A stretch of 64,000 nucleotides of DNA from Patescibacteria group bacterium UBA6241 (GCA_002441425.1 DJWB01000001.1:105653-169652); one strand, 5' to 3'. Shown: positions 3,784-57,171, counted from the first letter of the stretch. The notes: generated from the sequence alone by a model not told the origin. Program-made: numbers and translations.

Positions 3784-3843
3784 AACTGGCCTCAGTAGAC
3801 CATTTTACTTGCATAAATGCAATGAAGACTGCACGCTGTACCT

Positions 3844-23941: not shown

Positions 23942-23958
23942 ATGAAAACACGCGGGGG

Positions 23959-24399: not shown

Positions 24400-24493
24400 T
24401 GCCTTGTCACAGGATTGTGACTAAAGCTCTGCAGGCACTCTACGTGAGCTCACCTGGATTGTCTAATTCAGAGGCTCCCAGTAGGATGGCCAC

Positions 24494-25465: not shown

Positions 25466-25473
25466 TCTTTGGC

Positions 25474-26508: not shown

Positions 26509-26513
26509 GGAAT

Positions 26514-26584
26514 TGGGAGATCGTCTAATGGTAGGACAGCGGCCTTTGAAGCCGTGAATCTAGGTTCGATCCCTAGTCTCCCAG
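26514..26584 (+). tRNA. tRNA-Gln(TTG)
   Basis: TGGGAGATCGTCTAATGGTAGGACAGCGGCCTTTGAAGCCGTGAATCTAGGTTCGATCCCTAGTCTCCCAG. Anticodon loop CTTTGAA. Confidence 0.85.
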
Positions 26585-26683
26585 CAATAAGAAAGCTCAA
26601 ATAACAAAGCCCCACAACCGCATGATTGGGGGCTCCCGTGACGAAATCGGGCTACGTCTGCTTTTCTTACAGGGATTGAGGAC

Positions 26684-27169
26684 TCAGATGATCCCGTTGA
26701 GAATCTTTACGAGCTGGTCGATCGCTTCTCGCTGTTGGGCATCGTGAGTAACTTCGCAGAGGTCCAGCAAACTATCACAGCCTTCATCACATTGATGTGC
26801 TGAAAGGAACGCCTGACCGATGGCCTGCTTGCCACCGCTAATGCAAATCATGAAGTCACGAATCGGTTCGGAAACGTGGCTCATGACGTGAAGGCTGTAT
26901 CCGAAGGAATCCAGCAACTCTTCTGTGTTGATCGTGACCTCCGTGCCCATTTGCCTGCCAGCATTCTTAGCGGCTGCACCGATTGCATTCTTTACTCTGC
27001 CGACCACGTTCTGAATCAGTCTGGCTTGCTTATGTGCCAAACGTTCTTCATGTGACATCGAAAAAACCATTTCGAGATGAATATCAAGCAACATCGTAAC
27101 GTCCTTGGGAATGAGTTCAGCATCCCTACTGACTGCAGAAGTTGAACACTGCAGTTTGTCCGTGTGCAA
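26684..27169 (-). CDS. Hypothetical protein (161 aa), divergent from the cassette array
   Basis: ORF between tRNA-Gln and the first array repeat. No tyrosine-recombinase motifs are recognisable. Somewhat elevated GC. Confidence 0.4.
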   Translation of the reverse strand: MHTDKLQCSTSAVSRDAELIPKDVTMLLDIHLEMVFSMSHEERLAHKQARLIQNVVGRVKNAIGAAAKNAGRQMGTEVTINTEELLDSFGYSLHVMSHVSEPIRDFMICISGGKQAIGQAFLSAHQCDEGCDSLLDLCEVTHDAQQREAIDQLVKILNGII

Positions 27170-27233
27170 TATGCTTTATTTATATAGATATGTCAAGTAT
27201 AAAAGTTCCAACATCGTCCCATACCCCCAGCCA

Positions 27234-27578
27234 ATGTATACTCGTGGTATGCCAACAGCTAACATCTATTTCAGTGGTCAGGATAATGTTGAGGCACTTC
27301 AGGCTCTTATTCCTGACCTTAAGACGTATCTCGCACAGGAACTTTCTTGCAGCGACATTTCCCTCACATCAGAAGAGATTAGCATTCGATTTATTACAAA
27401 TACCGGCCCCAATATGATTGGCGATGTAGAGGTTCAGATATCGGCCCATTCATTCCCAGAACGCATTCAAAAGCAGGATCAAGTATGTCTCGACGTAATG
27501 AAATGGCTCCAAGATCGAACTGAGGTAAAGAACATTAAGGTCTGGCTTCAGCTCTCTAAGCTAGGACATAGTTGGTAG
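27234..27578 (+). CDS. Cassette ORF, hypothetical (about 114 aa)
   Basis: ATG 2 nt after repeat copy 1 (27204-27232); coding-like composition. Confidence 0.45.
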   Translation: MYTRGMPTANIYFSGQDNVEALQALIPDLKTYLAQELSCSDISLTSEEISIRFITNTGPNMIGDVEVQISAHSFPERIQKQDQVCLDVMKWLQDRTEVKNIKVWLQLSKLGHSW

Positions 27579-27654
27579 GTTCGTTAATCTTAAGCAGTTT
27601 CGTGCAGATTTGACATAGTAAGTTTTAGTGATAAAAATCATTCGGAGGTGCGAA

Positions 27655-28020
27655 ATGGCAACAATCCTTATTGTCGAAGATACGCCGCTATACCAGCGAG
27701 GGTATCAAAGGGAGCTCGCAGAGCATACCTTGATCATCGCAGGGACTTCGGCTGTCGCCCGGGCTGAATTCGCCCGAATGCAGCATACGATCGATATCAT
27801 CATCCTCGATGGTGAGCTCGCTTCGATGGACCCCGAACGGGACACTGTCGATATGGCGAGCGACTTCCGTGCCGCAGGCTTTACGGGTCCGATGATCGCT
27901 GCGAGCAGCAACCCGTACATCATGAACCAGCTCATGGAGAAGAATCGGTGCTCGCACCGAGCCAGCCCCAAGTCTGATGTCCAAGACCTGGTCAACCAGA
28001 TCCTCGAGAACCGCCCTTAA
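27655..28020 (+). CDS. Cassette ORF, CheY-like receiver-domain protein (stand-alone), high GC
   Basis: SD GGAGG 5 nt upstream of the ATG at 27655. MATILIVEDTPL...IIILDGEL shows the receiver-domain beta1/beta3 pattern. About 58% GC. Confidence 0.5.
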   Translation: MATILIVEDTPLYQRGYQRELAEHTLIIAGTSAVARAEFARMQHTIDIIILDGELASMDPERDTVDMASDFRAAGFTGPMIAASSNPYIMNQLMEKNRCSHRASPKSDVQDLVNQILENRP

Positions 28021-28104
28021 CCGAGCGGTTTTTCATTTACCGAAAGACTCAGAAGGGTTCCAACATCGTCCCAGACTGCCAGCAACTTTGGTACACTTAT
28101 TTGT

Positions 28105-28521
28105 ATGGAGAAAATAGACGAGCAAATTCTACTCACAGAGAGCTTTGATGTGCATCAGGATTGGGAAACCCCAATACCAGGATTTTATATAGTCGCATCG
28201 AGAGATCTCTCCAAAAAGTCTGTCGCAGATTTTACTGACGCTGAATCAGTTGAACTAGCGCTCCTTCTTAAGCGAGTAAGAAAAGCGATGAGTGAAGCTC
28301 TGGGTATAGAGGTTGTGTACTTTTTTGAGAACGAAGATACGGAGCATAGTTTTCATTTCTGGATGTTTCCACGACATGCATGGATGAATCAGTTTGGACC
28401 AAAGGTTCAGTCAATACGGCCAATTATTGAATTCGCTCGACAAACTATGGCAACTCAAGAAACTCTGGCTGAGGTTAAGGAGGCGGCAGAAAAGATGCGA
28501 CTTGTCCTAAAGGAGGGATAA
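28105..28521 (+). CDS. Cassette ORF, hypothetical (138 aa)
   Basis: Starts 22 nt after repeat copy 2; the stop codon abuts repeat copy 3. Confidence 0.45.
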   Translation: MEKIDEQILLTESFDVHQDWETPIPGFYIVASRDLSKKSVADFTDAESVELALLLKRVRKAMSEALGIEVVYFFENEDTEHSFHFWMFPRHAWMNQFGPKVQSIRPIIEFARQTMATQETLAEVKEAAEKMRLVLKEG

Positions 28522-28706
28522 AATAGGTTCCAACATCGTCCCACACAGCCAGCATTATTGACAAGCATGTTTATTGTTTGTATTGTACAAACTTAGTTCT
28601 TTGAACACGTTCGCCACAACGCAGGGCACCCTATTTTTAGGATTCTGTGCGCTGTGGCGAATCTGAGATCAGGTTTGTTTGAACGGCGCTGTAAAACCAC
28701 TCAGCA

Positions 28707-29165
28707 ATGGAGTTTCCTATGAGTGAACAACAGTCCTTCCGCGGTCAGGTGGATCGCATGCTGGGACAAATCGTCACCCACGGTCGCCATCTCGAAGGAT
28801 GGACGTCTGAGGATCGGCAGTGGGTGATCGAATATCCGGTTCCGGCCCTCATACTCTTCGCGAAGGCGGTCAGAGAGCGGGATTCAATTCGGGAACCAAA
28901 GCCCGGTGCGGTCGACCTCCTGATCAAGGACGTCTTCACTGTTGAGAAGGCGGGACAGATTGGATCCACGAGTAATGCCAACGCTCGGGTTCTCAATCTG
29001 ACGGAAGAACGTCCGCTCGGTGCCCTTGGGCCGATCAAGACACTCGGCGAGCTAGCCGGGTACCGAGAGAACGTTTTGAGACACGAGCCTAATATGGGAG
29101 ACCAGACCATCTCCTACATCAAGGCCGTCTTGGCAGAGCATGGTCTCAGTTTAAGTTCGCAATAA
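28707..29165 (+). CDS. Cassette ORF, hypothetical (152 aa), high GC
   Basis: About 57% GC; preceded by a long imperfect inverted repeat at about 28610-28662. Confidence 0.45.
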   Translation: MEFPMSEQQSFRGQVDRMLGQIVTHGRHLEGWTSEDRQWVIEYPVPALILFAKAVRERDSIREPKPGAVDLLIKDVFTVEKAGQIGSTSNANARVLNLTEERPLGALGPIKTLGELAGYRENVLRHEPNMGDQTISYIKAVLAEHGLSLSSQ

Positions 29166-29284
29166 GATCATCATGGGCTGTCTGTTTCCGAAAGGGAATG
29201 GCGGCCCTTTTACTTAATAAAAGTTCCAACATCGTCCCACACACCCAGCTATAAAAAAACCGCCCACGGCTCTTGAGGCGGTTG

Positions 29285-29626
29285 TTACGGCTTGGTCAGT
29301 TCTTCAAGAACGATATCGAGGACCGTTGTTCTCAGCCATTTCTCGAAAGTGGCTGGGTTAAAAAGGTAAGTCGGTTCTATATTGCCGGGCTCGATCTTCC
29401 TTGAAATGGTTGTTCGTGTCCAGATACCCATCATGCCGTTGGCAGGGAAGTAAACCAGAGATAAACAGAACCAAGGATGTCCTTCCCTTGTTCCCTCTAT
29501 GTCATACCGGAGGTAGTACTTTTCCTTTTCGTTACCGGACTCTATCTCAACATCGCAACATAGAGGCTCTGCGAAGTGAGACAAAATAGTCAGAAGCGAG
29601 TCAGGACCTTCAAGATCTGTCGTCAT
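29285..29626 (-). CDS. Inverted cassette ORF, hypothetical (about 113 aa from MTTDLEG), with its own terminator
   Basis: Minus-strand ORF between repeat copies 4 and 5. Perfect minus-strand terminator AACCGCCTCAAGAGCCGTGGGCGGTTTTTTTA at 29253-29284. Confidence 0.45.
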   Translation of the reverse strand: MTTDLEGPDSLLTILSHFAEPLCCDVEIESGNEKEKYYLRYDIEGTREGHPWFCLSLVYFPANGMMGIWTRTTISRKIEPGNIEPTYLFNPATFEKWLRTTVLDIVLEELTKP

Positions 29627-29724
29627 GTGCGACTCCTGTAGCGAATCTAGACAGAACCTACCACATGCTGAAGAAAGGTTCCAACATCGTCCCACACAGC
29701 CAGCAGAGGTTGTATAATAGTTGC

Positions 29725-30120
29725 ATGAAGAATTCTTTTGGAATGAGGCCTCCTGCTAGGAACGAGCGCCCAGTTTCTGAAGCAAGAGAAATAACCCCAG
29801 CCCAGGTTCCTGATTTCGTTAAATCAGAGTTTAAGAGACTGAGAGATCAAATACTCCAAGAATCCGATGGCGCAGAACTGAAGGATAAGAAAGGATTGGT
29901 GGAGAATCTAGAAGATGGGGTCGAGCGTTATATTTTAGTTAATGAATTGCGAGACTCAGATACCCGGGCACATACTCAAGCCAGCCCATTTATGAATTTG
30001 ACTCCAAGCGGAACGTATAAGGAAATACACATGATTGTGGACGTAAAGAACGGAACTATAACTAAGTCCGAAATGAATAGAAACCCCGATCCCTCATGGT
30101 TCTCTATGAGGTATAGCTAA
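29725..30120 (+). CDS. Cassette ORF, hypothetical (131 aa)
   Basis: ATG at 29725, 21 nt after repeat copy 5; the stop abuts copy 6. Confidence 0.45.
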   Translation: MKNSFGMRPPARNERPVSEAREITPAQVPDFVKSEFKRLRDQILQESDGAELKDKKGLVENLEDGVERYILVNELRDSDTRAHTQASPFMNLTPSGTYKEIHMIVDVKNGTITKSEMNRNPDPSWFSMRYS

Positions 30121-30172
30121 GAAGGTTCCAACATCGTCCCACACAGCCAGCAACGAATGCTACACTTTTGTC

Positions 30173-30631
30173 ATGCGAACTGTTGAACGAGAGATCGCCT
30201 CTGCGCTCATCTTCTCAAAAGACGGGAAGCTCCTGCAGGTTAAGAATGCTGAACCTGTGCACGGAGTGTATGGAGAATGTTGGGTTATACCTGGCGGCGG
30301 TCTCGAAGAGGGAGAGACAGTGGAAGAGGCCGTGGTACGCGAAGTGATGGAGGAAGTCGGTCTAGATATCTCTTCTTCTCCGAAGGAATTAGTATGGACA
30401 GGCAACGGGGAATCGACCCGGATCCTCAAAGATACGGGCGAGGAGGTGCTCGTAAAGATGCGCTTCAACAACTTTAAAGTTCAGCTTGAAGAGAACGCAG
30501 AAGATATCCAGCTTACGTTTGGTGACGAACACCATGTGCATATATGGACCGATGTATCTGAGCTGAAGAACATGAGCCTCTCTCGACCATCTATAGAATG
30601 CCTGACTGAGCTTGGTTATTTACCGAGCTGA
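30173..30631 (+). CDS. Cassette ORF, NUDIX hydrolase
   Basis: NUDIX box GGGLEEGETVEEAVVREVMEEVGL (G-x5-E-x7-REUxEExGU). Confidence 0.8.
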   Translation: MRTVEREIASALIFSKDGKLLQVKNAEPVHGVYGECWVIPGGGLEEGETVEEAVVREVMEEVGLDISSSPKELVWTGNGESTRILKDTGEEVLVKMRFNNFKVQLEENAEDIQLTFGDEHHVHIWTDVSELKNMSLSRPSIECLTELGYLPS

Positions 30632-30685
30632 TTCTGGTTCCAACATCGTCCCAGACTGCCAGCCATCTATGTTAGGATTGGTTGA

Positions 30686-31018
30686 ATGAATAAGAATGGA
30701 TCGACTCGAGCTTGGTTCGTCATGTTTAGTCTGACAGCTATTGCTCTTGCAATCCCTCTCACAAATCTCAGCCTCTTACTTTCTGGAATATATAACGAGC
30801 CCGGGTATTCAGATGGAACTGTTTCGAGCCCAACCGAGATAGCATTCCTAACTGTTGCCATACTCGTGCCAATTGGAGTGACGGTTAGTGTGATTATGAC
30901 TCAGTGGAAGCGCTCTGTGGCATGGGGTGTGCTTGGTGTAATGATCTCATTTGCTCCTGTGCTTCTAGCAGCAATTATTGCGGCCGCTGCTATCATCTCT
31001 CGGGCTCTGTTCTCTTGA
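30686..31018 (+). CDS. Cassette ORF, small membrane protein (110 aa)
   Basis: Three predicted TM helices; terminates with TGA at 31016-31018, directly before repeat copy 8. Confidence 0.5.
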   Translation: MNKNGSTRAWFVMFSLTAIALAIPLTNLSLLLSGIYNEPGYSDGTVSSPTEIAFLTVAILVPIGVTVSVIMTQWKRSVAWGVLGVMISFAPVLLAAIIAAAAIISRALFS

Positions 31019-31119
31019 GTGTAAGGGTTTCAACATCGTCCCACACCCCCAGCCTGTAAGAGAAAACCCGCCAACAACTAAGAGACGGGAATCTCATTGT
31101 TGCAGCGGGTCGCGTTTGT

Positions 31120-31503
31120 TTAGTAGATATGAGGTGCGACGAAATAGCGGATGGACACGCGGCCTTGCTCGCCCGGTTCGTCGATCGTGATGATGACGTT
31201 GTCTTTCCAGACAGAGCGCAGCACCTCAACTGCTGCCGCAACCTGTTTGTAGTTGCGGAGGCCAGGGAGGTTGTAGCCGTAGCGGTCTGAGTACTTTCCG
31301 TACATCAAAAGCACCTCGATGACCTGCTGCTCCCTGACGAATCGGCGCAGGCTGGTGTTCTCTGGAGGAATGGCCTCCAGAAGGGCAGTTGCGAGTCTCG
31401 CTTCAGCCTCAGCCTGATCTTGTCGTTGTCGCTCGAACTCAGAGAGAGTGCGGATTCGATCGCTCAGCGCTGACGCTAAACGAAAAGGATCGAGATTGTT
31501 CAC
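31120..31503 (-). CDS. Inverted cassette ORF, hypothetical (127 aa), elevated GC
   Basis: Minus-strand ORF between repeat copies 8 and 9. Confidence 0.4.
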   Translation of the reverse strand: MNNLDPFRLASALSDRIRTLSEFERQRQDQAEAEARLATALLEAIPPENTSLRRFVREQQVIEVLLMYGKYSDRYGYNLPGLRNYKQVAAAVEVLRSVWKDNVIITIDEPGEQGRVSIRYFVAPHIY

Positions 31504-31627
31504 GGTTCTTCTCCCAATAACCTAGTGAGGAATATACTATTTAAATTCTATTTAGTCAACAGATCCTGCAGAAAGGTTCCAACATCGTCCCAGACAGCAA
31601 ACACTAAAGAATGCCATAATCAGTAAT

Positions 31628-32077
31628 ATGTATTACATATACAAAGAAATGCAGCCAGGCGAACAAGAAATAGTTCGTGGGATGATACATAGTTTTTACG
31701 CAACCGATCCAGATATGGGCGCAATAACAGACGAGAAGATTAATCGTACTTTTAGTGAGTTTTCAAAGCATCCAGAGAAAGGTTTTGTATATGTAATAAA
31801 GGACGACCAACAGATTGTTGGCTACAGCATACTTGTGAACTTTTGGAGCAATGAGGCGGGAGGAAATATCATTGATATTGACGAGTTGTTCGTAGAAGAG
31901 AGCGAGCGAGGAAAGGGAGTGGGAACAAATTTCATTAAGCACATTATAGAAAGTCGTCTGAACGAATGTGTCGCTGTTGAACTAGGGGTCATAGCAGGGA
32001 ATGACAGAGCACAAAGACTTTATGAGCGAATAGGGTTTAGGCTCTCCACTAACCGTCGCCTAATATATGATTTCTAA
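31628..32077 (+). CDS. Cassette ORF, GNAT family N-acetyltransferase
   Basis: Acetyl-CoA binding motif ...ELFVEESERGKGVGTNFIKHII...; 149 aa. Confidence 0.75.
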   Translation: MYYIYKEMQPGEQEIVRGMIHSFYATDPDMGAITDEKINRTFSEFSKHPEKGFVYVIKDDQQIVGYSILVNFWSNEAGGNIIDIDELFVEESERGKGVGTNFIKHIIESRLNECVAVELGVIAGNDRAQRLYERIGFRLSTNRRLIYDF

Positions 32078-32135
32078 CCTGACTAGGTTTCTAACAACGT
32101 CTCAGACTGCCAGCTAATTTTGATACACTTCTTGC

Positions 32136-32810
32136 ATGAATTCTGTACTTATAACTGGAGCAGGCAGAGGAATAGGCAAAGAACTGTCTCTGAGATTTCT
32201 CGGTGCTGGGTATCGGGTGTGGGGAACTACAACATCGGGAGATGCTGATTTCTCGCACGAGAATCTTCAAATGCTACAGCTCGATCTCCGTTCACCAGAG
32301 AGCATAAAGACATGCGTGCAGGAATTAATTAGTTCCGGCGAACGATTCGATATTGCAGTTAACAATGCAGGGGCGCTCCTTGATGAGAACGAAAAGACCC
32401 TCAAGACAGATCTCCTACGCCAAACACTAGAGATAAACCTTATTGGAACTTCGGATTTTACAGAGCAAGTTTTACCTCTTGTGAATAAAGGAGGGCACAT
32501 TGTTATGGTGTCGTCTTCTGCTGGATCAGTTGGAAGGACTGGCAATGTAGTAAGCCGATATCCATCACAGTATCCCGCGTACAAGATCTCAAAGGCTGCA
32601 CTTAACATGTATATGCGTACACTTGCCGTTCGATTGAAGGATAAGGACATTACGGTGTCTTCTGTCCATCCTGGATGGGCCAGGACTGATATGGGAGGTG
32701 AAGAGGCATCAATCTCAGCGGAGGAAGCTGCCGACACTGTTTACAAGGTAGCCATATCTAGACCAGAGACTGGTCACTTCTGGTATTCAGAAGGAGAATT
32801 GCCTTGGTAG
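32136..32810 (+). CDS. Cassette ORF, short-chain dehydrogenase/reductase (SDR)
   Basis: ITGAGRGIGKEL (TGxxxGxG) and the catalytic YPAYKISKAAL (YxxxK). Confidence 0.8.
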   Translation: MNSVLITGAGRGIGKELSLRFLGAGYRVWGTTTSGDADFSHENLQMLQLDLRSPESIKTCVQELISSGERFDIAVNNAGALLDENEKTLKTDLLRQTLEINLIGTSDFTEQVLPLVNKGGHIVMVSSSAGSVGRTGNVVSRYPSQYPAYKISKAALNMYMRTLAVRLKDKDITVSSVHPGWARTDMGGEEASISAEEAADTVYKVAISRPETGHFWYSEGELPW

Positions 32811-32867
32811 AAAGTTCCAACGTCGTTCTAGGCCGTCAGCTCATAAAATTCATGCTAAATTTCTCTC

Positions 32868-33413
32868 ATGATTAAAATCACTTACTTTGTCCACGGAACA
32901 ACTGTAGACAATCAGAATGAGATCTCCTCCGGCTGGTCTGACGCCCCTCTATCCGAGTTAGGTATTCAGCAGTCAAAAGATCTTAAGGAGCAAACTAAGG
33001 ATAAGCATTTTGATGTAGTGTTTTGTTCTGACCTGCAACGCGCTCGCATGTCTGCAGAACTTGCTTGGGGCAGTATGTACGAGATTATTCCCGATGCTCG
33101 TCTTCGTGAATGTAACTATGGCGAGCTGAATGGAAGAGCATCTGAAATTGTAGAGCCGCTGCAAGAGAAGGAAATGCATTTCAAGGCATTTCCGGGTGGG
33201 GAGAGTTATGAGGATGTGAAGAATCGTGTTGCTGACTTCCTTGATTTCCTCAAAGAAAATTATGATGGCAAGCACGTAGCGCTAGTGGGTCATAAGGCAC
33301 CCCAGCTTGCACTTGATGTCCTTATCAAAGGAGTAACCTGGGACGAGGCTCTCGCGAATGATTGGCGTAAGACTAAGTCTTGGAAACCAGGCTGGGAATA
33401 CCAACTAATCTAG
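32868..33413 (+). CDS. Cassette ORF, histidine phosphatase superfamily (PGM-like) protein
   Basis: N-terminal ITYFVHGTT... and an internal VALVGHKAP region; tentative. Confidence 0.5.
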   Translation: MIKITYFVHGTTVDNQNEISSGWSDAPLSELGIQQSKDLKEQTKDKHFDVVFCSDLQRARMSAELAWGSMYEIIPDARLRECNYGELNGRASEIVEPLQEKEMHFKAFPGGESYEDVKNRVADFLDFLKENYDGKHVALVGHKAPQLALDVLIKGVTWDEALANDWRKTKSWKPGWEYQLI

Positions 33414-33472
33414 TTAAACAGGTTCCAACATCGTCCCACACCCCCAGCCAATAAAATTGTTATAGTTTATGT

Positions 33473-34042
33473 ATGACTTATATTCTTCATGGAGGATTTG
33501 AACGGGAAGATAACGAGTTAAATAGAAGCTTCTATCAAGAAGTTCTGAAAGGCGTTTCTGATAATGGAACACTTCTTCTTGTTCACTTTGCTTCAACTCA
33601 CTCTCCAGAAGAGGTGAAAGAAACACACGAACTCCAGGAGAAAAGGATGCAAAGCCTTACGAACAAACATATAAATGTTGAGTTCGCGACCGAAGAAGAT
33701 TTCTTAAATCAAGTGGAGCACGCGGATGCAATTCACATGCGAGGAGGACATACACCGAAATTGCTTTCAGTCCTGAAAAACTATCCGGAACTTGCAGCTA
33801 TGTTCTCAAACAAAACTATTTCTGGATCTTCAGCCGGAGCTTATGCATTGGCAAAATATGGACCCGGGCATTCAGAAGAGGGAATACGTGAAGGTTTGGG
33901 TCTTGTTCCTATTAGATTGGCCTGTCATTACGAAAGTCTAGAGTTACCTCCTGATTCTGAGTCACTTACTGAACTTAAAGCTATGGCGACAGAACTGGAA
34001 CTTGTAACATTGAGAGATTTTGAGTGGCGCGTATTCAATTAA
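33473..34042 (+). CDS. Cassette ORF, peptidase S51 (dipeptidase E)-like protein
   Basis: Nucleophile motif ISGSSAGAYAL (GxSAG) and a flavodoxin-like fold pattern. Confidence 0.5.
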   Translation: MTYILHGGFEREDNELNRSFYQEVLKGVSDNGTLLLVHFASTHSPEEVKETHELQEKRMQSLTNKHINVEFATEEDFLNQVEHADAIHMRGGHTPKLLSVLKNYPELAAMFSNKTISGSSAGAYALAKYGPGHSEEGIREGLGLVPIRLACHYESLELPPDSESLTELKAMATELELVTLRDFEWRVFN

Positions 34043-34093
34043 GGTTCCAACGTCATCTCACACCGCCAACAACTTCATGCTACGGTACTGAGT

Positions 34094-34546
34094 ATGAGAA
34101 GAGTTTCAGTAAGAGGTATCGCCCTACACGAAGGGAAACTTCTGTGCGTTAAATTGAAGCCGTATAACAAGATGGCTGCATCAGGAGGTGATTGGCGATG
34201 TCTTCCGGGAGGAACAGTTGAAGAAGGAGAATCATTGAATGTAGCTCTTATGCGGGAGATGTACGAGGAGACTGGCGTAAGTCCGGAAATAGGGAAACTA
34301 TTGTATGTTCATCAGTTTCTATTTGAGGAAAGTGACCAGCTTGAATTTTTCTTTCATATTGCTAATCCGGGTGACTATCTAGAAATAGACCTAGAGAACA
34401 CAACGCACGGATTACATGAGATCGAGAGTATTGATTTCGTAGACCCAAAAGAAACATTTATTCTCCCTATATTTCTTTCTCAGGAGACTTTAAAGAACCA
34501 AATCGAATCAAATGCACCGGTTAAAATATTTTCCTTTGCAAAGTAG
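34094..34546 (+). CDS. Cassette ORF, NUDIX hydrolase
   Basis: NUDIX box GGTVEEGESLNVALMREMYEETGV. Confidence 0.8.
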   Translation: MRRVSVRGIALHEGKLLCVKLKPYNKMAASGGDWRCLPGGTVEEGESLNVALMREMYEETGVSPEIGKLLYVHQFLFEESDQLEFFFHIANPGDYLEIDLENTTHGLHEIESIDFVDPKETFILPIFLSQETLKNQIESNAPVKIFSFAK

Positions 34547-34589
34547 GTCAGAGGATGGTTAATAAAAAGTTCCAACATCGTCCCAGACT

Positions 34590-34628
34590 GGCAACAAATA
34601 AAAACTGCCTAAAACCTTTCGGTCTTCG
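34590..34628 (+). terminator. Hairpin terminator-like element at the end of the array
   Basis: AAACTGCCTAAAACCTTTCGGTCTTCGGCAGTTTGAG immediately after the last repeat copy. Confidence 0.45.
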
Positions 34629-34958
34629 GCAGTTTGAGAGTTCATTCAGAATTGGCTGCGTCAGCTCTGCGTCGCTCGTCAGTCAATTCATCAAAATTTT
34701 TTGAGCTGAGTCGCCGATAGAGCGCATGCCGCTCATGTGGGTCTCTGTCTACATTGTTGGGGTGATCCAGAATTTCTTCAAGAGTTCTGAATCCTGAAGA
34801 TTGCTCGTGCATGAGATAGGTCTCCCTTCTGGACAGAACCTAACACGGACTGCATATACGTTCGAGCGTCGCCCAATACTACTAGACATGAAAATGGACA
34901 AGGAGCTATTTTATTGTATGGTGCTAGCAGAGAGACAATTAGCCAGGAGGGCTAGCAG

Positions 34959-35708
34959 ATGTACCAACCAACACAGCCGCTACTGTTCTCCTGGATTCAT
35001 GAAGGTGAATACCCGGGAGGAGACTACACCTTTTTACACAGTAATGGCTCATATGTACGAATTGAGGACTGGAAGAAACGGTATAAGGACACAAAGGAGA
35101 AACCGGCTATCCCATTCAGATTCACCGTGCGTGACCGCACATTCATTGGCCACATAACCGACGAATGTCTGGTATCGCGCATAACTGAGTATCTGCAGGA
35201 TTACTACGGTAAGCGTTACACCAACTGCTCCGCGTTCGCTCACTTCCTGACTACCGGCACGTTTATAGAGTGCGACGAAGAACAGAGCCTCGTTGTGCTT
35301 ACGCAGGACATGGCTCAGTACCGAGGCGAGACTATTCGTGTCGGGGATATGCTTTGCGTAATCTATGCGAATGATCGCCTTTGGCGGTCTCGCAAGGTGT
35401 CGCACCGCAAAAGTTACTTGCGTGCCAAGAAGAAACGGAGAGGTACGCACGAGTTCACTCACGGGTTACCTCCAAGAAAGAGGATTCTCTCCGCGAAGGG
35501 TATCCGGGAACTCTGCGCGAGTGTTCTCGCTGATGATTATCACTTTCTTGTCTGCGTCGCTAAAGACGCCGCCGGGCCGGTATGGCTTGCTCAAGGTGGA
35601 CGCTACGCACCGGGTGACGAACCTAGTCCGCTGGTGTTCACGGTGGGGAACAATGATGGATACGATAATGTAGTACCTCTCCTTGCGCTCCTTAAAAGAC
35701 GTAGATGA
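34959..35708 (+). CDS. Hypothetical protein (249 aa) with a basic KKKRRG stretch
   Basis: Coding-like ORF. The overlapping 34801-35157 ORF looks spurious. Confidence 0.4.
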   Translation: MYQPTQPLLFSWIHEGEYPGGDYTFLHSNGSYVRIEDWKKRYKDTKEKPAIPFRFTVRDRTFIGHITDECLVSRITEYLQDYYGKRYTNCSAFAHFLTTGTFIECDEEQSLVVLTQDMAQYRGETIRVGDMLCVIYANDRLWRSRKVSHRKSYLRAKKKRRGTHEFTHGLPPRKRILSAKGIRELCASVLADDYHFLVCVAKDAAGPVWLAQGGRYAPGDEPSPLVFTVGNNDGYDNVVPLLALLKRRR

Positions 35709-35811
35709 TCCCGGCTCTACACTTCAACGCCCGCGGCATTTATGTCGTGGGTGTTTCATTTTAAGTTCAGCATCGCTCCAGGCGGTCAGTTTATGGGTAT
35801 ATACTCTGCAT

Positions 35812-36816
35812 ATGTCAGCAATAGAACTTGTAAGAGTCTCTACTCCGGAAGATTGGGAGCAATATCACAGCATTAGAGAAAAAGTTTTATTTGAGAACAA
35901 GAACCGGTCTTATGATCGGACTCATGCTGATGAACACCGGCCTAACAATGTGCCATTTCTGCTAAAGAAGGACGGACTAGGTATAGCGACCACAAGACTA
36001 GATCTTCGTCCTGACACCCAAGCGGCTATTATCCGTCTAGTTGCTGTAGTTGAGTCTGAGCAACGAAAAGGGTATGGACGTGCTCTACAAGCAAAAATAG
36101 ATGAATATGCACGTTCTCAAGGCGTAAAAAGGCTTCTCGTTAATGCTGCCCCCGATGCTATTGGTTTCTATAAAAAGATCGGTTTTGTGCCGGAATCGTG
36201 GGACCCAGAAGAACTCACAGGAATATCTAAGGATTCCGTTCAGTTGTCTAAAGCATTGTTACCCATGACTGAAAAGGAAATACTTGAGCTAATCAAGAAC
36301 GACGAGTGGATGATGTCTATTCTTAGGGTAGCTCGTAGCCTTAATCTGCCGGATTGGATAATTGGTGCAGGATTCGTAAGAAACAAAGTTTGGGATCATC
36401 TACACGGGTATACGGAACGCACCCCTTTAGCTGATATAGATTTGATTTACTTTGATCCAGCTCATATAGATGAGTCACAAGAAAAAGAGTATGACCAAAG
36501 GCTACATCAATTAGTTGATGTTCAATGGTCTACAAAGAATCAAGCACGCATGCATGTAATAAATGGAAACGCACCATTTACCTCTGCAGAAGACGGATTG
36601 GCGCATTGGATTGAAACTCCAACATGTACTGGAGTAACGTTGCTAGACAACGACACTCTGCAATTAATTGCACCCTACGGGATAGAGGACCTTGTGCACT
36701 TGCGAGTGAGACCAGTTAACCCAGAGAAAGATATTACGCTTTATAGAGAGCGGGTAACAAAAAAGAAATGGAAGGAAACTTGGCCAAGACTAGAAATCTT
36801 AGAGACCAGAGCATAA
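35812..36816 (+). CDS. GNAT acetyltransferase fused to a nucleotidyltransferase-family (NTP_transf_6/DUF925-like) domain
   Basis: N-terminal GNAT (VESEQRKGYGRALQ...GFYKKIGF); C-terminal WIIGAGFVRNKVWDHLHG...DIDLIYFD. ATG at 35812. Confidence 0.55.
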   Translation: MSAIELVRVSTPEDWEQYHSIREKVLFENKNRSYDRTHADEHRPNNVPFLLKKDGLGIATTRLDLRPDTQAAIIRLVAVVESEQRKGYGRALQAKIDEYARSQGVKRLLVNAAPDAIGFYKKIGFVPESWDPEELTGISKDSVQLSKALLPMTEKEILELIKNDEWMMSILRVARSLNLPDWIIGAGFVRNKVWDHLHGYTERTPLADIDLIYFDPAHIDESQEKEYDQRLHQLVDVQWSTKNQARMHVINGNAPFTSAEDGLAHWIETPTCTGVTLLDNDTLQLIAPYGIEDLVHLRVRPVNPEKDITLYRERVTKKKWKETWPRLEILETRA

Positions 36817-36832
36817 TCAGCGAGAACAAACT

Positions 36833-37132
36833 CTACTGCATACTTACTAGTATGAGCATGCTGATTGTTAGCACAGCAAATACCCCTAGTGTCTTTAAAA
36901 AGTAGGACACGGCTTCAGCTCTCCTATTTTCTATAAGCAGTGCAACTGGTTGATAGAAAAACAGGAAGGCCATAACAGCTACAGAGAGCACCAGCAGAGA
37001 AATTACTCCCACGCCGTCTAGAAATGTGTCTGGTGTGTCGTGACGAAGTGATTCAATAAACTGCATAAACAGCGCTATGGCGCTTATATACAGGGCTGCT
37101 GCTACTGCATTCAATACGGGATTCCATTTCAT
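36833..37132 (-). CDS. Small membrane protein (99 aa)
   Basis: Three TM helices. Confidence 0.45.
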   Translation of the reverse strand: MKWNPVLNAVAAALYISAIALFMQFIESLRHDTPDTFLDGVGVISLLVLSVAVMAFLFFYQPVALLIENRRAEAVSYFLKTLGVFAVLTISMLILVSMQ

Positions 37133-37198
37133 ATAACTAGTATAACGGCGCAGCGCCTACCTTAGTTGCTTGCTGCTTGGCCGCGATATACTACACGC

Positions 37199-37630
37199 AT
37201 GAAAAAGGGAGAGGATTATGTGGGCGTTACCCTAAGCTTCTTCTGCCATGATGGAAAAGGAAACTTTATACTATCTAAACGCAGTGCAAATTGTCGTGAC
37301 GAGCACGGACGATGGGATTTCGGAGGAGGGGGATTAGATCTGCACGAGACAGTAGAAAATCAGCTACGCAGGGAAATAAAGGAGGAACTCTGTACGGATG
37401 TACTTGAATACGAGTTTCTCGGATATCGGGATGTGCACCGAGAGCATGAAGGAAAGAAGACACACTGGGTATCTTTGGACTTTAAAGTACTGATAGATCC
37501 TTCTCAGGTTAAGAATGGAGAGCCACACAAGTTTGATGAAATAGCATGGTTTAGACTGGACGCTCTTCCTGAGCCACTACATTCTCAGGCTCCTTTGGAG
37601 GTCGCCCTGTATAAGGCACAGCTTTCATAA
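37199..37630 (+). CDS. NUDIX hydrolase
   Basis: NUDIX box GGGGLDLHETVENQLRREIKEELC. ATG at 37199. Confidence 0.75.
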   Translation: MKKGEDYVGVTLSFFCHDGKGNFILSKRSANCRDEHGRWDFGGGGLDLHETVENQLRREIKEELCTDVLEYEFLGYRDVHREHEGKKTHWVSLDFKVLIDPSQVKNGEPHKFDEIAWFRLDALPEPLHSQAPLEVALYKAQLS

Positions 37631-37706
37631 GAGAATCTTGCAGAAATTGACTTTAATTTCTGCATCTATATAGTCAAAAAACCTAAAACACCGAGTCGGA
37701 GGGTTA

Positions 37707-38030
37707 ATGGTAGATGCTCTTTTAGTACTGGTGTATCTGGGCTTTGCGACCTCTGCGATATCAGTAACGCTTACGAGATCGGATATTACTCGCGAGCCGC
37801 GTCAGTGGCTCAAAGAGAAAGTCCCGTCTCTCGCAGGCCTTATTCATTGCCCATACTGCACTAGCCACTGGGTCGCCATGGTGCTTGTCCTGTTCTACAA
37901 GCCCGTTGTGGTTGACCTGTTTCTCCCCATTGATCTCGCCGTCTCCGTTATGGGCGTCGTAGGGATTGCCGGGGTCGTCTCAGGGATCTTGATTACAAAG
38001 ATCCCCTCGCTTGGAAGGAAGGAAGACTGA
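37707..38030 (+). CDS. Small membrane protein (107 aa)
   Basis: Three TM helices and a CPYC motif. Confidence 0.45.
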   Translation: MVDALLVLVYLGFATSAISVTLTRSDITREPRQWLKEKVPSLAGLIHCPYCTSHWVAMVLVLFYKPVVVDLFLPIDLAVSVMGVVGIAGVVSGILITKIPSLGRKED

Positions 38031-38150
38031 AATGCCGAAATGGGTTCCGAGATGCCCGATCTTTTGGATGCTGGTCATCATCATCGCCGTGAGCATCGGC
38101 GTGTGGCGGTGTAGTTCCGGATAAGGGATAACTTCCCACGAATACTTTTT

Positions 38151-38178
38151 AAGCCGCCGGAAGAATTGGCGGCTTTTT
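38151..38178 (+). terminator. Rho-independent terminator
   Basis: AAGCCGCCGGAAGAATTGGCGGCTTTTT. Confidence 0.6.
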
Positions 38179-38232
38179 ACTTTGTGAACACAAATAAATC
38201 TTGCCGTTTAGTATGCGATATACTTTATTCAT

Positions 38233-38571
38233 ATGAAATTCTTTGTAACCTACCAAATGCCCCATACGGGAATGGACGAGTGGATGAAAATCCCAGAAGA
38301 AGAGCGAAAAGTACAAGAACAGCAAATGCAGTCTGAATGGAATGCGTGGATGGGAGACCACAAGGACTCGCTAACTGAAAGTGCTGGTGTTGGAAAACCA
38401 AAGCGAATCACCGCAAAGGGAACTGAAGACGCTCGCAACGACATTATGATGTACTCATTTGTTGAGGCCACTACGCTTGAAGAGGCAGCAGAGATATTTA
38501 AAGATCATCCACACTTTGGCATTCCAGGTGCGTGGATAGAAGTGATGTCCGTAAATAAGAATATCGGCTAA
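38233..38571 (+). CDS. Hypothetical protein (112 aa)
   Basis: Coding-like ORF; no motif recognised. Confidence 0.4.
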   Translation: MKFFVTYQMPHTGMDEWMKIPEEERKVQEQQMQSEWNAWMGDHKDSLTESAGVGKPKRITAKGTEDARNDIMMYSFVEATTLEEAAEIFKDHPHFGIPGAWIEVMSVNKNIG

Positions 38572-38587
38572 GTAGTAGCAGATACGC

Positions 38588-38935
38588 ATGTCCTACAAGT
38601 TAACGAAGTCTGCGGATCTTCCAAAGAAGGAGAAGTACGAAATGGAGATCCGTATCTTGCCTGAGATTGGGAATTGCAATGTCATTACCGCTGAAACAGA
38701 AACCGGACACAATCAGGAGTTTTATGACACTGAATCAACCTTCCACTACATCATAGTGAGCGGGTCCGGAAGCTTTTTCCTTGATGATAAGGAAGTCCCT
38801 GTTTCTGAAGGCGACTATCTTTCGATAGAACCAAAGACAAGAATCTATTACAAAGGCCGTATGCGTCTTGTGCTAATAACAAATCCTCCCTGGCGGCAGG
38901 AGAATGAGGTTGAGACAAGATCCAAGATTTGGTAA
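38588..38935 (+). CDS. Cupin-domain protein
   Basis: Double-stranded beta-helix pattern around HNQEF...HYIIVSGSGSF...GDYLSIEP. Confidence 0.5.
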   Translation: MSYKLTKSADLPKKEKYEMEIRILPEIGNCNVITAETETGHNQEFYDTESTFHYIIVSGSGSFFLDDKEVPVSEGDYLSIEPKTRIYYKGRMRLVLITNPPWRQENEVETRSKIW

Positions 38936-38942
38936 ACGGCGT

Positions 38943-39347
38943 ATGCAAAAACTACCCACAGAACTCGCTGCTCTACTAAGAAAGAATAAAGAGACTCAAG
39001 CAAGCTGGAGTTCACTTACTCCTATTGCCCAAAGAGATTTCATTACATGGATTAATTCTGCAAAGCAGGAGACAACTAGGATAAAGAGAGCTGAACGAGT
39101 TCCTGATATGTTGCGCTCAGGAAAGCGCCGCCCCTGCTGCTACGCAGTGGTGCCCATGGATCTTTATAGAGAACTAGGAGCAAATCCCAAGGCGAAAGCT
39201 ACATGGAAGACTCTCTCAGCCACAGAACGCAGAGACTTTAGCGATTGGGTAAGTACAGCTAGCAGTAAAGAGGATACCGAGCAAAGAGTTGAAAAAGTGA
39301 AGAAGCTTCTTATGCAAGGCAAAAAGAGCCTTGGAAGCAAGAAGTAG
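38943..39347 (+). CDS. YdeI/OmpD-associated family protein
   Basis: LPTELAALLRKN...WSSLTPIAQRDFITWINSAKQETTRIKR pattern. ATG at 38943. Confidence 0.55.
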   Translation: MQKLPTELAALLRKNKETQASWSSLTPIAQRDFITWINSAKQETTRIKRAERVPDMLRSGKRRPCCYAVVPMDLYRELGANPKAKATWKTLSATERRDFSDWVSTASSKEDTEQRVEKVKKLLMQGKKSLGSKK

Positions 39348-39398
39348 CGCCTCTCAACAGACTCCTCATACCCACTTCACAAGGCGCATGAGATAGTT

Positions 39399-40061
39399 AT
39401 GAGACGTATGCAAACAAACCAAAGAAACATCCTGATTATAGGCGCTGTAGTTGCTGCTCTCATCCTTATCGGAGGGGGATGGTATCTAATTTCTAATGTA
39501 AACCCTCCTCCTTCAACAGATACCTCAACATTTAAGAGTAAGGCATTCTGGTTTGACTACCCAAGAATATTTGATGTACGTGAGTTTGAAACAGGTGCAG
39601 TACTCGTAGGCTCTCAAGAACGAAAGGAATTTGTCCCGTTGGTTCAAGTTATGGAGTACAAGAGTGATCCTGATTCACCACTACCCGCAAGCTACGAGGA
39701 GTTTGTAACGCAGCAAGCACTTGAACTTTGTGGGTCAGACAACTCGGAAGAGAGTGTTGAGTGTAGTACTCCTGTAGTTGAGCCGTTCACAAGCCTTAAT
39801 GCATTTGAGGGACTTAAAGTTACGCTTACTCTCACACGGACTAATCTAGAGACACAGGAATCTGTCGCATCAACCTTTGGTCCAATCTATGCATTTGATG
39901 TAACGAAGCCTGCAACAGCAGAGGATCCATTAAGATACACATCAATATTTGTGAACCCAACTCTTCAGGCAACTCTCTCAGGCACTGAAGTAACAGAGTT
40001 GCTTGATGCTGTTGTTGCAAGACTTGTTATAAGTAATGAAGACTCACAACTTCCACTCTAA
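39399..40061 (+). CDS. Hypothetical membrane-anchored protein (220 aa)
   Basis: N-terminal TM helix ILIIGAVVAALILIGGGWYLI. Confidence 0.45.
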   Translation: MRRMQTNQRNILIIGAVVAALILIGGGWYLISNVNPPPSTDTSTFKSKAFWFDYPRIFDVREFETGAVLVGSQERKEFVPLVQVMEYKSDPDSPLPASYEEFVTQQALELCGSDNSEESVECSTPVVEPFTSLNAFEGLKVTLTLTRTNLETQESVASTFGPIYAFDVTKPATAEDPLRYTSIFVNPTLQATLSGTEVTELLDAVVARLVISNEDSQLPL

Positions 40062-40063
40062 CT

Positions 40064-40474
40064 ATGAAAGGATTCGTAACTAATATTGAGCACGAGACAG
40101 AGGAGAATAATAACTTTAGAAAGGTGCTCTACACTGCGCAGCATTGCCAGCTCGTTGTGATGTCAATTCCAGTATCAGAAGATATTGGAGCAGAAATACA
40201 CGATGTAGATCAGTTCATTCGTATTGAAGAAGGGGAAGGTACGAGCATACTAGACGGTGTTGAACGATCTCTCACCAAGGGCTCTGCGGTAGTTATTCCT
40301 GCAGGTGTACAGCACAACATCATAAATACTTCAGACACCAATGCACTCAAGCTATATAGCGTATATGCTCCCGCACATCATGAAGATGGAGTGATCCACA
40401 AAACAAAAGCTGAGGCACTTAAAGATGATGAACACTTTGACGGACACACTACTGATGCGCTAGAACAAGAGTAA
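40064..40474 (+). CDS. Cupin-domain protein
   Basis: [17 protein letters not shown]...[11 protein letters not shown] is a cupin motif pair. Confidence 0.5.
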
Positions 40475-40959
40475 TGACATCTAAAGCCATTCTTGCTGGA
40501 GGCTGTTTCTGGGGCCTTGAGGAGCTGTTTAGGAGCCGTACAGGGGTGCTTGCTACCGAAGCCGGCTATACCGGAGGAGAGAATGAGAACCCTACATATG
40601 AGAACCACCCAGGCCATGCAGAGGCTCTGGAAATTACGTATGACCCTGAGCAGACCTCTTTCATAGAACTTTTGGATTTCTTTTTCTGCGTACACAATCC
40701 AACGACACTAAATCAACAAGGAAATGACATGGGAACCTCATACCGGTCTGCTATTTTCTATCAGAACGAAAAGGAGAAGAGAGAGGCAGCTGAGTTTATA
40801 CAAAGAGTAGATAACTCAGGAAGATGGGAGGATCCTGTAGTTACTACATTGGAACCATTCACCAAGTTCTATCCTGCAGAAGAGCCTCACCAGGACTACC
40901 TACAAAAGAATCCAGGAGGCTATACCTGCCATGCAGTGTATTTTGATTCATACCTGTAA
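40474..40959 (+). CDS. msrA: Peptide methionine sulfoxide reductase MsrA
   Basis: Active-site GGCFWG at the N-terminus, and a C-terminal EPHQDY. Confidence 0.88.
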
Positions 40960-40962
40960 CGT

Positions 40963-52632: not shown

Positions 52633-52745
52633 TGATTCGCCTATTGAACTTAACTTCGGTTGAGTTTGATAATTCGGACCACTGCTCTTTTCAGCAGCAT
52701 AGTTTAACTTAGGTGGGCCAAAAGCGCCCAAGAAGGAGACTGAAG

Positions 52746-53897: not shown

Positions 53898-53916
53898 GAA
53901 ACTATGCTCAAACTTG

Positions 53917-53960
53917 CCCCGCGTGACCTGTAACAAGGTTCCGCGGGGTATTTTTTTATG
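53917..53960 (+). terminator. Rho-independent terminator after the high-GC gene
   Basis: CCCCGCGTGACCTGTAACAAGGTTCCGCGGGGTATTTTTTT. Confidence 0.65.
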
Positions 53961-53970
53961 CACTGTATTC

Positions 53971-57160: not shown

Positions 57161-57171
57161 CTAACCTTTAT

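Follow-up and report, generated by a model that had tools for sequence, protein, structure and literature searches.

We analysed a stretch of 64,000 nt from Patescibacteria group bacterium UBA6241 (GCA_002441425.1 DJWB01000001.1:105653-169652; this whole stretch is called the window), in which an accessory island had been predicted to begin immediately after the gene for tRNA-Gln (the original prediction). As listed in Table 1, the tRNA gene is followed by 15 small units (cassettes), each closed at its 3' side by a copy of one short direct repeat, the site. Directly 5' of the tRNA-Gln lie dus (24494-25465) and dnaX (25474-26508), as labelled by Pfam. This conserved dus-dnaX-tRNA-Gln backbone is real, and its homology to the nearest different genome, L004 (JAHJZL010000054; DnaX 88% identical), stops exactly at 26585, the 3' end of the tRNA (blastn). 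Throughout, L-numbers denote genome stretches (loci) from a species-representative genome collection, metagenomes and IMG/VR.

Results

Anatomy of the cassette array

The sites split the region into 15 units of 0.29-0.85 kb, each holding one open reading frame (ORF) except unit 2, which holds two. The genes run on the plus strand in 11 units and on the minus strand in four, and the site is on the plus strand in all of them. Pfam and NCBIfam recognised two NUDIX hydrolases, one GNAT acetyltransferase, a short-chain dehydrogenase, a histidine phosphatase and an S51-like peptidase as cargo. The remaining cassette ORFs are ORFans, for which NCBIfam gave nothing useful; the divergent hypothetical ORF expected after the tRNA is present (26684-27169, minus strand) and matches neither Pfam nor NCBIfam. 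The second ORF of cassette 2 gave a weak, below-cutoff match to a response-regulator receiver domain. Cassette 1 is presumably the newest cassette, and a homologue of cassette 12 (86% amino acid identity) sits in the array of L098. Three NUDIX genes had been foreseen and were all recovered, in cassettes 7 and 14 and at 37166-37630. Three GNAT-type genes had been foreseen as well, of which Pfam gives two in 26.6-38 kb, that of cassette 10 and a GNAT-nucleotidyltransferase fusion; the fusion and the third NUDIX gene do follow the array. The leader of cassette 4 contains a 24-nt inverted repeat with a 4-nt loop and 79% complementarity (28610-28661), which could be a terminator or a regulatory hairpin.

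Table 1. Features of the array region in the window, with partial tRNA-Gln duplications of other loci in the last rows
Feature	Coordinates	Strand	Gene or ORF	3' site	Basis
tRNA-Gln(UUG), array anchor	26514..26585	+			ARAGORN; Rfam 63.8 bits
Cassette 1, tRNA-proximal	26586..27231	-	ORFan 26684-27091/27169 (-)	R1 27204-27231	
Cassette 2	27232..28083	+	ORFs 27249-27578 (109 aa, Met-Pro start) and 27655-28020	R2 28056-28083	
Cassette 3	28084..28553	+	ORFan 28105-28521	R3 28526-28553	
Cassette 4	28554..29249	+	ORFan 28707-29165, long leader	R4 29222-29249	
Cassette 5, gene inverted	29250..29704	-	ORFan 29285-29626 (-)	R5 29677-29704, stays +	
Cassette 6	29705..30151	+	ORFan 29725-30120	R6 30124-30151	
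Cassette 7	30152..30663	+	NUDIX hydrolase 30173-30631	R7 30636-30663	Pfam
Cassette 8	30664..31053	+	Hydrophobic protein 30686-31018, probably membrane, no family match	R8 31026-31053	
Cassette 9, gene inverted	31054..31602	-	ORFan 31120-31503 (-)	R9 31575-31602	
Cassette 10	31603..32114	+	GNAT acetyltransferase 31628-32077	R10 32087-32114, degenerate	
Cassette 11	32115..32840	+	Short-chain dehydrogenase 32136-32810	R11 32813-32840, degenerate	
Cassette 12	32841..33448	+	Histidine phosphatase 32868-33413	R12 33421-33448	
Cassette 13	33449..34070	+	Peptidase S51-like 33473-34042	R13 34043-34070, degenerate	
Cassette 14	34071..34595	+	NUDIX hydrolase 34094-34546	R14 34568-34595	
Cassette 15, gene inverted	34596..34889	-	56-aa ORF ~34642-34812	R15 34859-34886, very degenerate	
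Fossil cassette	34890..35790	+	249-aa ORF 34959-35708	35763-35790, decayed	Homology and position weight matrix
Fossil cassette	35791..36830	+	GNAT-NTP_transf_6 fusion 35683/35812-36816	No recognisable site after	Pfam
Small accessory genes	36833..40960	.	99-aa hydrophobic ORF, probably membrane (-); NUDIX 37166/37199-37630; DUF1360; OmdA/YdeI; MsrA; cupin 40064-40474 (clear); cupin 38588-38935 (weak, below cutoff)	No recognisable sites	Pfam
tRNA-Gln partial duplication, L158	7773-7943				
tRNA-Gln partial duplication, L178	12215-12369				
tRNA-Gln partial duplication, L010	1408-1590				
tRNA-Gln partial duplication, L095	7040-7200				
tRNA-Gln partial duplication, L168	52-235				
tRNA-Gln partial duplication, L189	2923-3100				

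The repeat site

The site at the 3' side of each cassette is a direct repeat of about 30 nt, (A/G)GTTCCAACATCGTCCCA-N5-CCAGC. It consists of two parts: an invariant arm, GTTCCAACATCGTCCCA with about 5 nt after it, and then a core of 6-8 nt, here CCAGC[A]. With up to 3 mismatches allowed, GTTCCAACATCGTCCCA occurs 13 times in the window, where 0.08 copies would be expected, all on the plus strand between 27205 and 34585; the predicted cassette array is therefore real. A position weight matrix (PWM) built from 215 copies of other genomes scored 14 copies in the window at 27-55 bits, while the maximum in 20 shuffled windows was 15, and a weak terminal copy appeared at 34852 (9.9 bits). Cassette 15 was drawn on the basis of this weak copy, a gene call in L121 and a similarity of the repeat to the R5 region. 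The repeat family is limited to 27197-34886 and keeps its plus orientation whatever the direction of the gene. The PWM scan detected no comparable site elsewhere in the 64 kb on either strand, and neither the repeat search nor the PWM found an inverted copy in the window.

Pooling 283 copies gave the consensus t.AaAAAgGTTCCAACATCGTCCCAgAC.gCCAGCaaa, about 33 nt long, with unconserved flanks on both sides. By inspection, the consensus AAAGGTTCCAACATCGTCCCAGACNGCCAGCA is without dyad symmetry, and every copy is direct. When 11 sites with 50-nt flanks were folded as bottom-strand DNA, no structure was found beyond that of shuffles (z -1.3 to +1.4), and Rfam at its gathering threshold returned tRNAs only. 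Site quality in the window falls with distance from the tRNA (Spearman -0.77, p = 4e-4), and the weakest site is the last one at the captured array ends of L004, L010 and L017.

The tRNA 3' end as insertion point

The tRNA-Gln is intact at the insertion point (63.8 bits), and likewise in about 30 loci. Its 3' terminus, CCCAGC (26580-26585), stands at what may be called 'site 0', an attB- or attI-like insertion point. In line with the original prediction, no direct repeat of the tRNA 3' end was found downstream: the 22-nt end has no second copy at up to 3 mismatches in the 64 kb, and a 15-mer of it gave matches at chance level only. Yet its last 5-7 nt (CCAGC[A]) recur in the sites and close almost every cassette repeat. 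A 15-25-nt tRNA repeat, of the kind expected of a classical island, is absent because the tRNA end and the cassette sites have only the core of 6-8 nt in common. We also considered the repeat as a derivative of the tRNA 3' end and rejected this; two alternative alignments demand indels of 2-5 nt, and therefore only the 6-8-nt core is treated as shared. Across the junction the window reads ...CCCAG-CAA (26585-26588) and L004 reads ...CCCAG-CCA (4267-4270). Whether CCA is encoded in the genome thus depends on the first cassette, since the bases after C74 come from the inserted cassette.

Core and anchor tRNA vary together

The site ends in 6-8 nt that are shared with the 3' terminus of the tRNA anchoring the array, be it tRNA-Gln, -Pro, -Ser or -Glu. 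The core is CCAGC next to tRNA-Gln with G73, in the window and most other loci, and CCAACA or CCCGAACA next to tRNA-Gln with A73 (L032, L103, L043, L021, L099). With tRNA-Pro it is CCCGACA (L100, L113), with tRNA-Ser CTCTCCGC (L086) and with tRNA-Glu GTACT (L110). When the pairing of tRNAs and arrays was permuted 5000 times, the observed match of 0.67 was never reached (mean 0.43, maximum 0.59).

One of these loci, L110, also contains a perfect 162-nt duplication (2608-2770 and 3667-3830), one copy after the tRNA-Glu 3' end and the other after the single site 1 kb downstream. It may record the formation or the duplication of a cassette.

Turnover between relatives

Three assemblies obtained from other samples (L121, L122 and L123) have an identical DnaX. 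They are 100% identical to the window over the 14-21 kb compared, L121 and L122 spanning the array completely and L123 stopping at R5. They are therefore the same clone and offer no within-species variation for this lineage, so that L197 and L198, two strains of a related species, were used instead. A metagenome scan with the dnaX/tRNA junction for closer relatives gave no match.

L004 aligns with the window at 22336-26585 (77% nucleotide identity) and again from 34890 (85%). The roughly 3.2 kb between these flanks in L004 contain unrelated genes together with six sites, and only the sites match the window. The sharply variable block is thus 26586-34889. In the L197/L198 pair the flanks are 97-98.7% identical, and only the tRNA-proximal cassette differs: a nucleoside deoxyribosyltransferase stands against a 232-aa ORF, followed by an identical set of seven downstream cassettes. 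Identity resumes within the first site, past a polymorphism at core position 9. Insertion of cassettes at the tRNA-proximal end is borne by this one strain pair and by the one decay gradient in the window. These alignments support an accessory, horizontally variable island that starts right at the tRNA-Gln 3' end, with similar flanks and no shared cassettes in L004 and different first cassettes in L197 and L198. Of the integration at a tRNA 3' end that had been proposed, the starting point stands; what entered there is not one integrase-borne element, and single-gene cassettes were instead acquired independently.

Cassettes are also shared between arrays. The NUDIX gene at position 7 of the window has a homologue in L201 (85% amino acid identity) at the first position, next to a tRNA-3'-like remnant. 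At the nucleotide level the two are homologous from just past the upstream CCAGC/CCTGC to a point within the downstream site that follows ...CCCAGAC. The limits of this homology, together with the L197/L198 junction, place the crossover in the N-G-CCAGC segment.

Two further features were seen in these and related loci. An insertion sequence (IS) element with an rve-family transposase lies within the array, just before the cassette of a 249-aa gene, in L197 (9099-9860), L198 (5642-6403) and L199 (1929-2810). A family of proteins of about 224 aa is encoded immediately upstream of the tRNA-Gln in six loci (L197 5394-6068, L198 1634-2308, L172, L046, L181 and L177). It has an N-terminal helix-turn-helix of resolvase type or homeodomain-like, and a C-terminal part of no assigned family with the motif LYWAEGSK; in strains that are 97-99% identical the N-terminus is identical and the C-terminal two thirds strongly divergent. 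This might be a selfish gene like those of homing endonucleases, or might be linked to the array.

Distribution and tRNA anchoring

Loci were collected as 8-kb tiles seeded with an exact 17-mer, by which divergent arrays would be missed, and their tRNAs were called by ARAGORN. Scanning the species-representative genome collection for the 17-mer gave at least 120 stretches, at least 66 of which are arrays, with two or more same-strand copies 300-1500 nt apart. The metagenome-assembled genomes (MAGs) with arrays are labelled almost without exception as members of the candidate phyla radiation (CPR): Saccharibacteria, Parcubacteria/Paceibacterota, Kaiser-, Nomura-, Wolfe-, Moranii-, Levyi- and Berkelbacteria, and WWE3. 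Single genomes can carry several arrays, as in LFCR01 (L017, L019, L087), JAGLJF01 (L021, L099) and JAUPKX01 (L033, L101, L118).

When the loci are turned to place their repeats on the plus strand, a plus-strand tRNA-Gln (UUG or CUG) stands 5' of the first repeat in about 30 of them, mostly 340-1200 nt away. The interval is occupied by one or two unrelated small ORFs that start 3-32 nt after the tRNA (23 loci). Since this spacing equals that after a site, the tRNA end stands where a 'site 0' would be. Some lineages have dnaX before the tRNA and others have ftsX, and hence the tRNA is the anchor, not the neighbourhood. The same tRNA-Gln 3' end was present on 39 metagenome contigs; 14 of them have arrays, and several others have 3-11 kb of downstream sequence without one. 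In the MAG RS_3_34, the tRNA-Gln(UUG) and the tRNA-Gln(CUG) each have a site behind them, with an identical core and the same downstream cassette start.

The 17-mer was found on some contigs with other labels as well: Gammaproteobacteria (L005, L027, L052, L065, L068, L080, L088, L111/L116), Woesearchaeota (L098) and Bdellovibrionales (L114). Multi-copy arrays are present on L005, L068, L088, L098, L111 and L114, and the remaining such contigs have a single copy. The array contigs are probably mis-binned CPR contigs, and the labels Gammaproteobacteria and Woesearchaeota on them call for caution in binning. Phage or plasmid carriers in IMG/VR were rejected: all 34 matches there (L124-L157) lie in the coding sequence of a C5 DNA methylase from high-GC proteobacterial prophages and are unrelated, and the single matches in Proteobacteria (L012, L029, L051, L076, L097, L104) lie in the same coding sequence. 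In the alphaproteobacterial prophages this methylase encodes VWDDVGTF through the reverse complement of the 17-mer with about 7 flanking nt. The match is probably a coincidence, because about 70 chance matches to a 17-mer are expected in 596 Gb; the extra flanking identity is slightly odd.

In six loci (Table 1), the full tRNA-Gln is followed by a spacer of about 27 nt (CAGCACATTTCACTCACTCGCTTGCCGG), conserved across lineages, and then by a partial duplicate of about 55 nt of the tRNA 3' part. The cassettes of L158 and L189 begin after this second copy. These arrangements appear to have been left by a separate kind of integration at this tRNA, one that makes a long duplication.

Decayed cassettes and the right boundary

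The right boundary had been left undefined in the original prediction, with accessory genes to about 37630. That end proved arbitrary; the boundary relative to L004 now lies at 34889/34890, and the island does continue beyond it as fossil cassettes. The 249-aa gene that comes first is conserved in L004, and its L197 homologue (69% identical) lies inside the array with two more sites after it. The decayed site behind this gene is the best PWM match outside the array (35756), agreeing at 21 of 26 positions with one gap. We had tried the 249-aa family as a marker of the right flank and rejected it, since a distant homologue (P0005) lies in an unrelated context without sites. The next gene, the GNAT-NTP_transf_6 fusion, probably starts at the ATG at 35812, which is preceded by TATACT and 6 nt. 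The array thus continues as decayed cassettes to at least about 36.8 kb. No sites were detected by the PWM scan in 36833-40960, and the genes there may be older, fully decayed cassettes. In L062 (DnaX 69% identical), the tRNA is followed by one cassette and one site and then directly by the HI0933-like flavoprotein gene that occupies 40963-42198 in the window. Everything up to 40960 is absent from that position in L062 and is therefore dispensable at its evolutionary distance.

Expression signals of the cassettes

In the window, 10 of the 11 plus-strand cassettes have a TAnnnT or CATAAT that ends 6-7 nt before the ATG, usually preceded by TGn. Across loci, TGnTAnnnT was found in 36 of 88 leaders (41%, as compared with 4.6% of shuffles), in 23 of these 36 exactly 6 nt before the ATG; a Shine-Dalgarno motif is present in only 9 of the 88. 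An mRNA that starts from a -10 box 6-7 nt before the ATG would be leaderless. From these motifs, the cassettes appear to carry their own extended -10 promoter and to be translated without a leader. Window genes outside the array (35812, 37199 and 38233) have TATACT 6-8 nt before the ATG, and leaderless expression may for this reason be a habit of the whole genome.

Search for a recombinase

Pfam found no integrase or recombinase among 40 of the larger ORFs in 26.6-62.7 kb. All-against-all clustering of 2598 ORFs from the 120 loci gave no conserved array-associated protein beyond the housekeeping dnaX, dus, ftsE and ftsX. No integrase-bearing master element with this site was found in the 120 genome loci, the 39 metagenome loci or IMG/VR. 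Mini-arrays of one or two cassettes, with no tRNA, abut a xerC/xerD-like gene in L033 (3783-5142) and L067 (4495-6840); in both the gene is convergent and has its 3' end next to the array. The chance of such an adjacency is roughly estimated at about 3%, and it is the only hint to a recombinase.

Other features of the window

Two very large ORFs of 912 and 862 aa lie at 54422-59760, the first with HerA/DUF87 and TraG/TraD C-terminal matches, and may form a DNA-translocation or conjugation-like ATPase module. GC content peaks at 0.58 in 52704-54029, compared with about 0.46 around it, where two long ORFs overlap on opposite strands (441 aa, minus; 394 aa, plus). The 441-aa ORF has no Pfam match.

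Discussion

Our results make it likely that 26586-34889, together with its decayed remnants, is a chromosomal gene-cassette array that functions like a sedentary integron and is built differently. In the mechanism that we propose, a site-specific recombinase encoded elsewhere would act in trans on the core of a circular cassette and the identical core at the tRNA-Gln end. Conservative recombination would insert the cassette directly after the tRNA and regenerate an intact tRNA. The arm and core of the new cassette would be left just upstream of the previously first one, and older cassettes would be pushed away while their sites decay. Excision would run in reverse, with one site recombining either with another site or with the tRNA end. 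Such a model would explain why the array is direct, why cassette 1 follows the tRNA without a site in between, why the first position turns over and why distal sites decay. The overlap region of tyrosine recombinases is 6-8 nt long, and serine recombinases need only 2 nt. Since a stretch of 6-8 bp must match here, the recombinase is presumably of the tyrosine type. The circular intermediates, the type and identity of the recombinase and the polarity of insertion are what we infer from the array, whose anatomy, boundaries, spread across the CPR, tRNA anchoring, core covariation and first-position turnover are matters of observation, as are the cassettes homologous between arrays and the lack of hairpins and of a linked recombinase.

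Several observations weigh against this reading. Approximate probes for XerD (by phmmer on every ORF of at least 100 aa) and for Hin gave neither a tyrosine nor a serine recombinase in the 64-kb window, and in the 120 loci, with about 66 arrays, they gave only two Xer-like genes, those of L033 and L067. Neither a circular intermediate nor a pair of empty and filled sites at nucleotide resolution was seen among the loci compared. Because the site is without dyad symmetry, just one recombinase-binding arm is apparent. L197 and L198 diverge also over a tract 5' of the tRNA, as might be expected if homologous recombination had replaced a larger segment. The decay gradient is inconsistent in eight other loci, which are incomplete within 8-kb tiles. 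In about 22 arrays the 1.5 kb upstream are free of tRNA genes, and in L017, L024 and L064 the nearby tRNA end mismatches the site core. The simple insertion model would not predict the duplication in L110. Moreover, the scan is biased to arrays that share the 17-mer.

The main rival, which we consider unlikely, is homologous recombination by RecA, in which the repeats of about 30 bp and the tRNA would serve as portable homology arms for DNA taken up by competence. It would fit the lack of a recombinase linked to any array, the presence of a DprA gene 4 kb upstream in the window genome and the unusual conservation of the repeat sequence across phyla; the replacement tract in L197/L198, moreover, may reach from the gene upstream of the tRNA to the first repeat. 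However, it gives no account of the agreement between the final 6-8 nt of the repeat and the 3' end of the tRNA at the same array, and it leaves unexplained why the first cassette abuts the tRNA without an intervening repeat and how new cassettes gain a site. In addition, about 30 bp is near the lower limit for RecA-dependent exchange.

That the region is an integron remnant, a cluster of attC sites lacking an integron integrase (CALIN) recombined by an IntI encoded elsewhere, is very improbable. The array is like integrons and CALINs in several respects. Both have mostly single-ORF cassettes with a 3' site each, co-oriented sites and some inverted genes. In both, turnover takes place at one end (the attI-equivalent), distal sites decay and the unit is bounded by crossover points. 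The cargo, mainly ORFans and small enzymes such as GNAT and NUDIX, also resembles that of Vibrio superintegron cassettes, which is rich in these same classes. In integrons, however, intI is adjacent to the array and attI lies next to it, and here no such gene is adjacent or within the 64 kb (the two Xer-like genes elsewhere are downstream and convergent), and the anchor is a tRNA 3' end that shares a 6-8-nt core with the site. The attC site is a hairpin conserved in structure; the site described here is a non-palindromic, double-strand-type site of about 30 bp, conserved in sequence across phyla, without RYYYAAC...GTTRRRY boxes, and the folding and inverted-repeat searches above gave no imperfect palindrome. 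Integron cassettes are usually promoterless and driven by Pc, whereas these appear to bring -10 boxes of their own, for mRNAs that would be leaderless.

About as improbable is a role of the repeat in regulation or at the RNA level, for example as an operator, promoter part, terminator or processing signal placed between stress-related genes, and not as a recombination site. The repeat stands just after stop codons, 15-30 nt before the next start and beside -10 boxes, and no recombinase was found, as such an element would have it. Against this, its orientation is constant whatever the gene direction, including the four inverted cassettes, and it forms no stable structure. The genes between repeats are unrelated and differ from one relative to the next within conserved flanks, the core changes together with the anchor tRNA, and shared cassettes are homologous only as far as the sites.

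Least probable of all is a classical tRNA-integrated island or prophage remnant, left by a single integrase-driven integration and later degraded, with the repeats incidental: insertion exactly at the tRNA 3' end, the 55-nt duplications that look like traces of other integrations at tRNA-Gln (L158, L178, L010, L095, L168, L189) and the tRNA-3'-like remnant in L201 would suit it, but there is neither an integrase in the 64 kb nor a distal copy of the tRNA 3' end, 15 regularly spaced sites are separated by single genes without relation to one another, close strains differ in the first unit alone, the same site occurs across phyla with entirely different cargo, and GC content is unchanged, with no drop, across the array region.

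Other known systems resemble the array in part. Like tRNA-targeting elements such as genomic islands and the tycheposons of Prochlorococcus, it inserts at a tRNA 3' end with the tRNA kept, accretes units downstream and is hypervariable between close relatives; the cargo-only satellites of tycheposons use a recombinase in trans, as the cassettes would. Those elements are multi-kb, and their repeat copies the 3' part of the tRNA, whereas here single-gene units of 0.3-0.9 kb carry a conserved 22-nt arm and a core of which 6-8 nt are shared. Islands at tRNAs have an integrase beside the tRNA and a distal direct repeat of at least 15 nt; here the intervals after the tRNA hold unrelated small ORFs, and only a core of 5-7 nt recurs. 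With Xer modules (IMEX and the pdif modules of Acinetobacter plasmids), the array has in common the small cargo, the short sites (about 28 bp) and, if our proposal holds, a recombinase encoded elsewhere, which in Xer modules is a housekeeping enzyme. In contrast to dif-type sites, in which two inverted 11-bp arms surround a 6-bp spacer, this site has no dyad symmetry, and unlike pdif sites, which alternate in orientation, all copies are direct and tied to tRNA 3' ends. CRISPR arrays and casposons, in which units are added in a polarised way next to a leader, likewise have acquired DNA separated by direct repeats of about 30 nt and a variable unit at one end, and some casposons target tRNA 3' ends. 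Here, by contrast, the units are whole genes of 300-800 bp and no cas1-like neighbour is conserved; nor is there a sign of repeat duplication on insertion, as no repeat lies between the tRNA and the first unit.

Taken together, the array is an integron analogue combined with tRNA-site integration, and by their defining tests it falls outside both families. It is an even call whether these arrays represent a distinct gene-capture system of the CPR/Patescibacteria, with self-expressed single-gene cassettes, insertion at tRNA 3' ends and a trans-acting recombinase of its own. Within that same evenly balanced proposal, the recombinase would read the universal 22-nt arm together with a 6-8-nt core that can be re-targeted to Gln, Pro, Ser and Glu tRNAs. 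Full-text literature searches, including the exact 17-mer, found no description of such a system; they covered few papers of subscription journals, and an earlier description may exist.

With genomes of about 0.5-1 Mb, CPR/Patescibacteria are regarded as streamlined episymbionts, in which the gain of accessory genes is poorly understood. If the proposal is true, the array would be one of the main ways in which these ultra-small genomes pick up accessory genes and reshuffle them. Integron-like capture would then have had an origin of its own, separate from IntI and attC hairpins. The recombinase would be a compact system for site-specific integration, directed to its target by a short core, and the apparent combination of a fixed arm with a tRNA-matched core makes it a candidate genetic tool for CPR. 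In practical terms, GTTCCAACATCGTCCCA provides a simple sequence handle for mining mobile genes of the CPR in metagenomes. The presence of the array in many CPR phyla, on one universal site, would mark an acquisition hotspot and a cassette pool common to the whole radiation.

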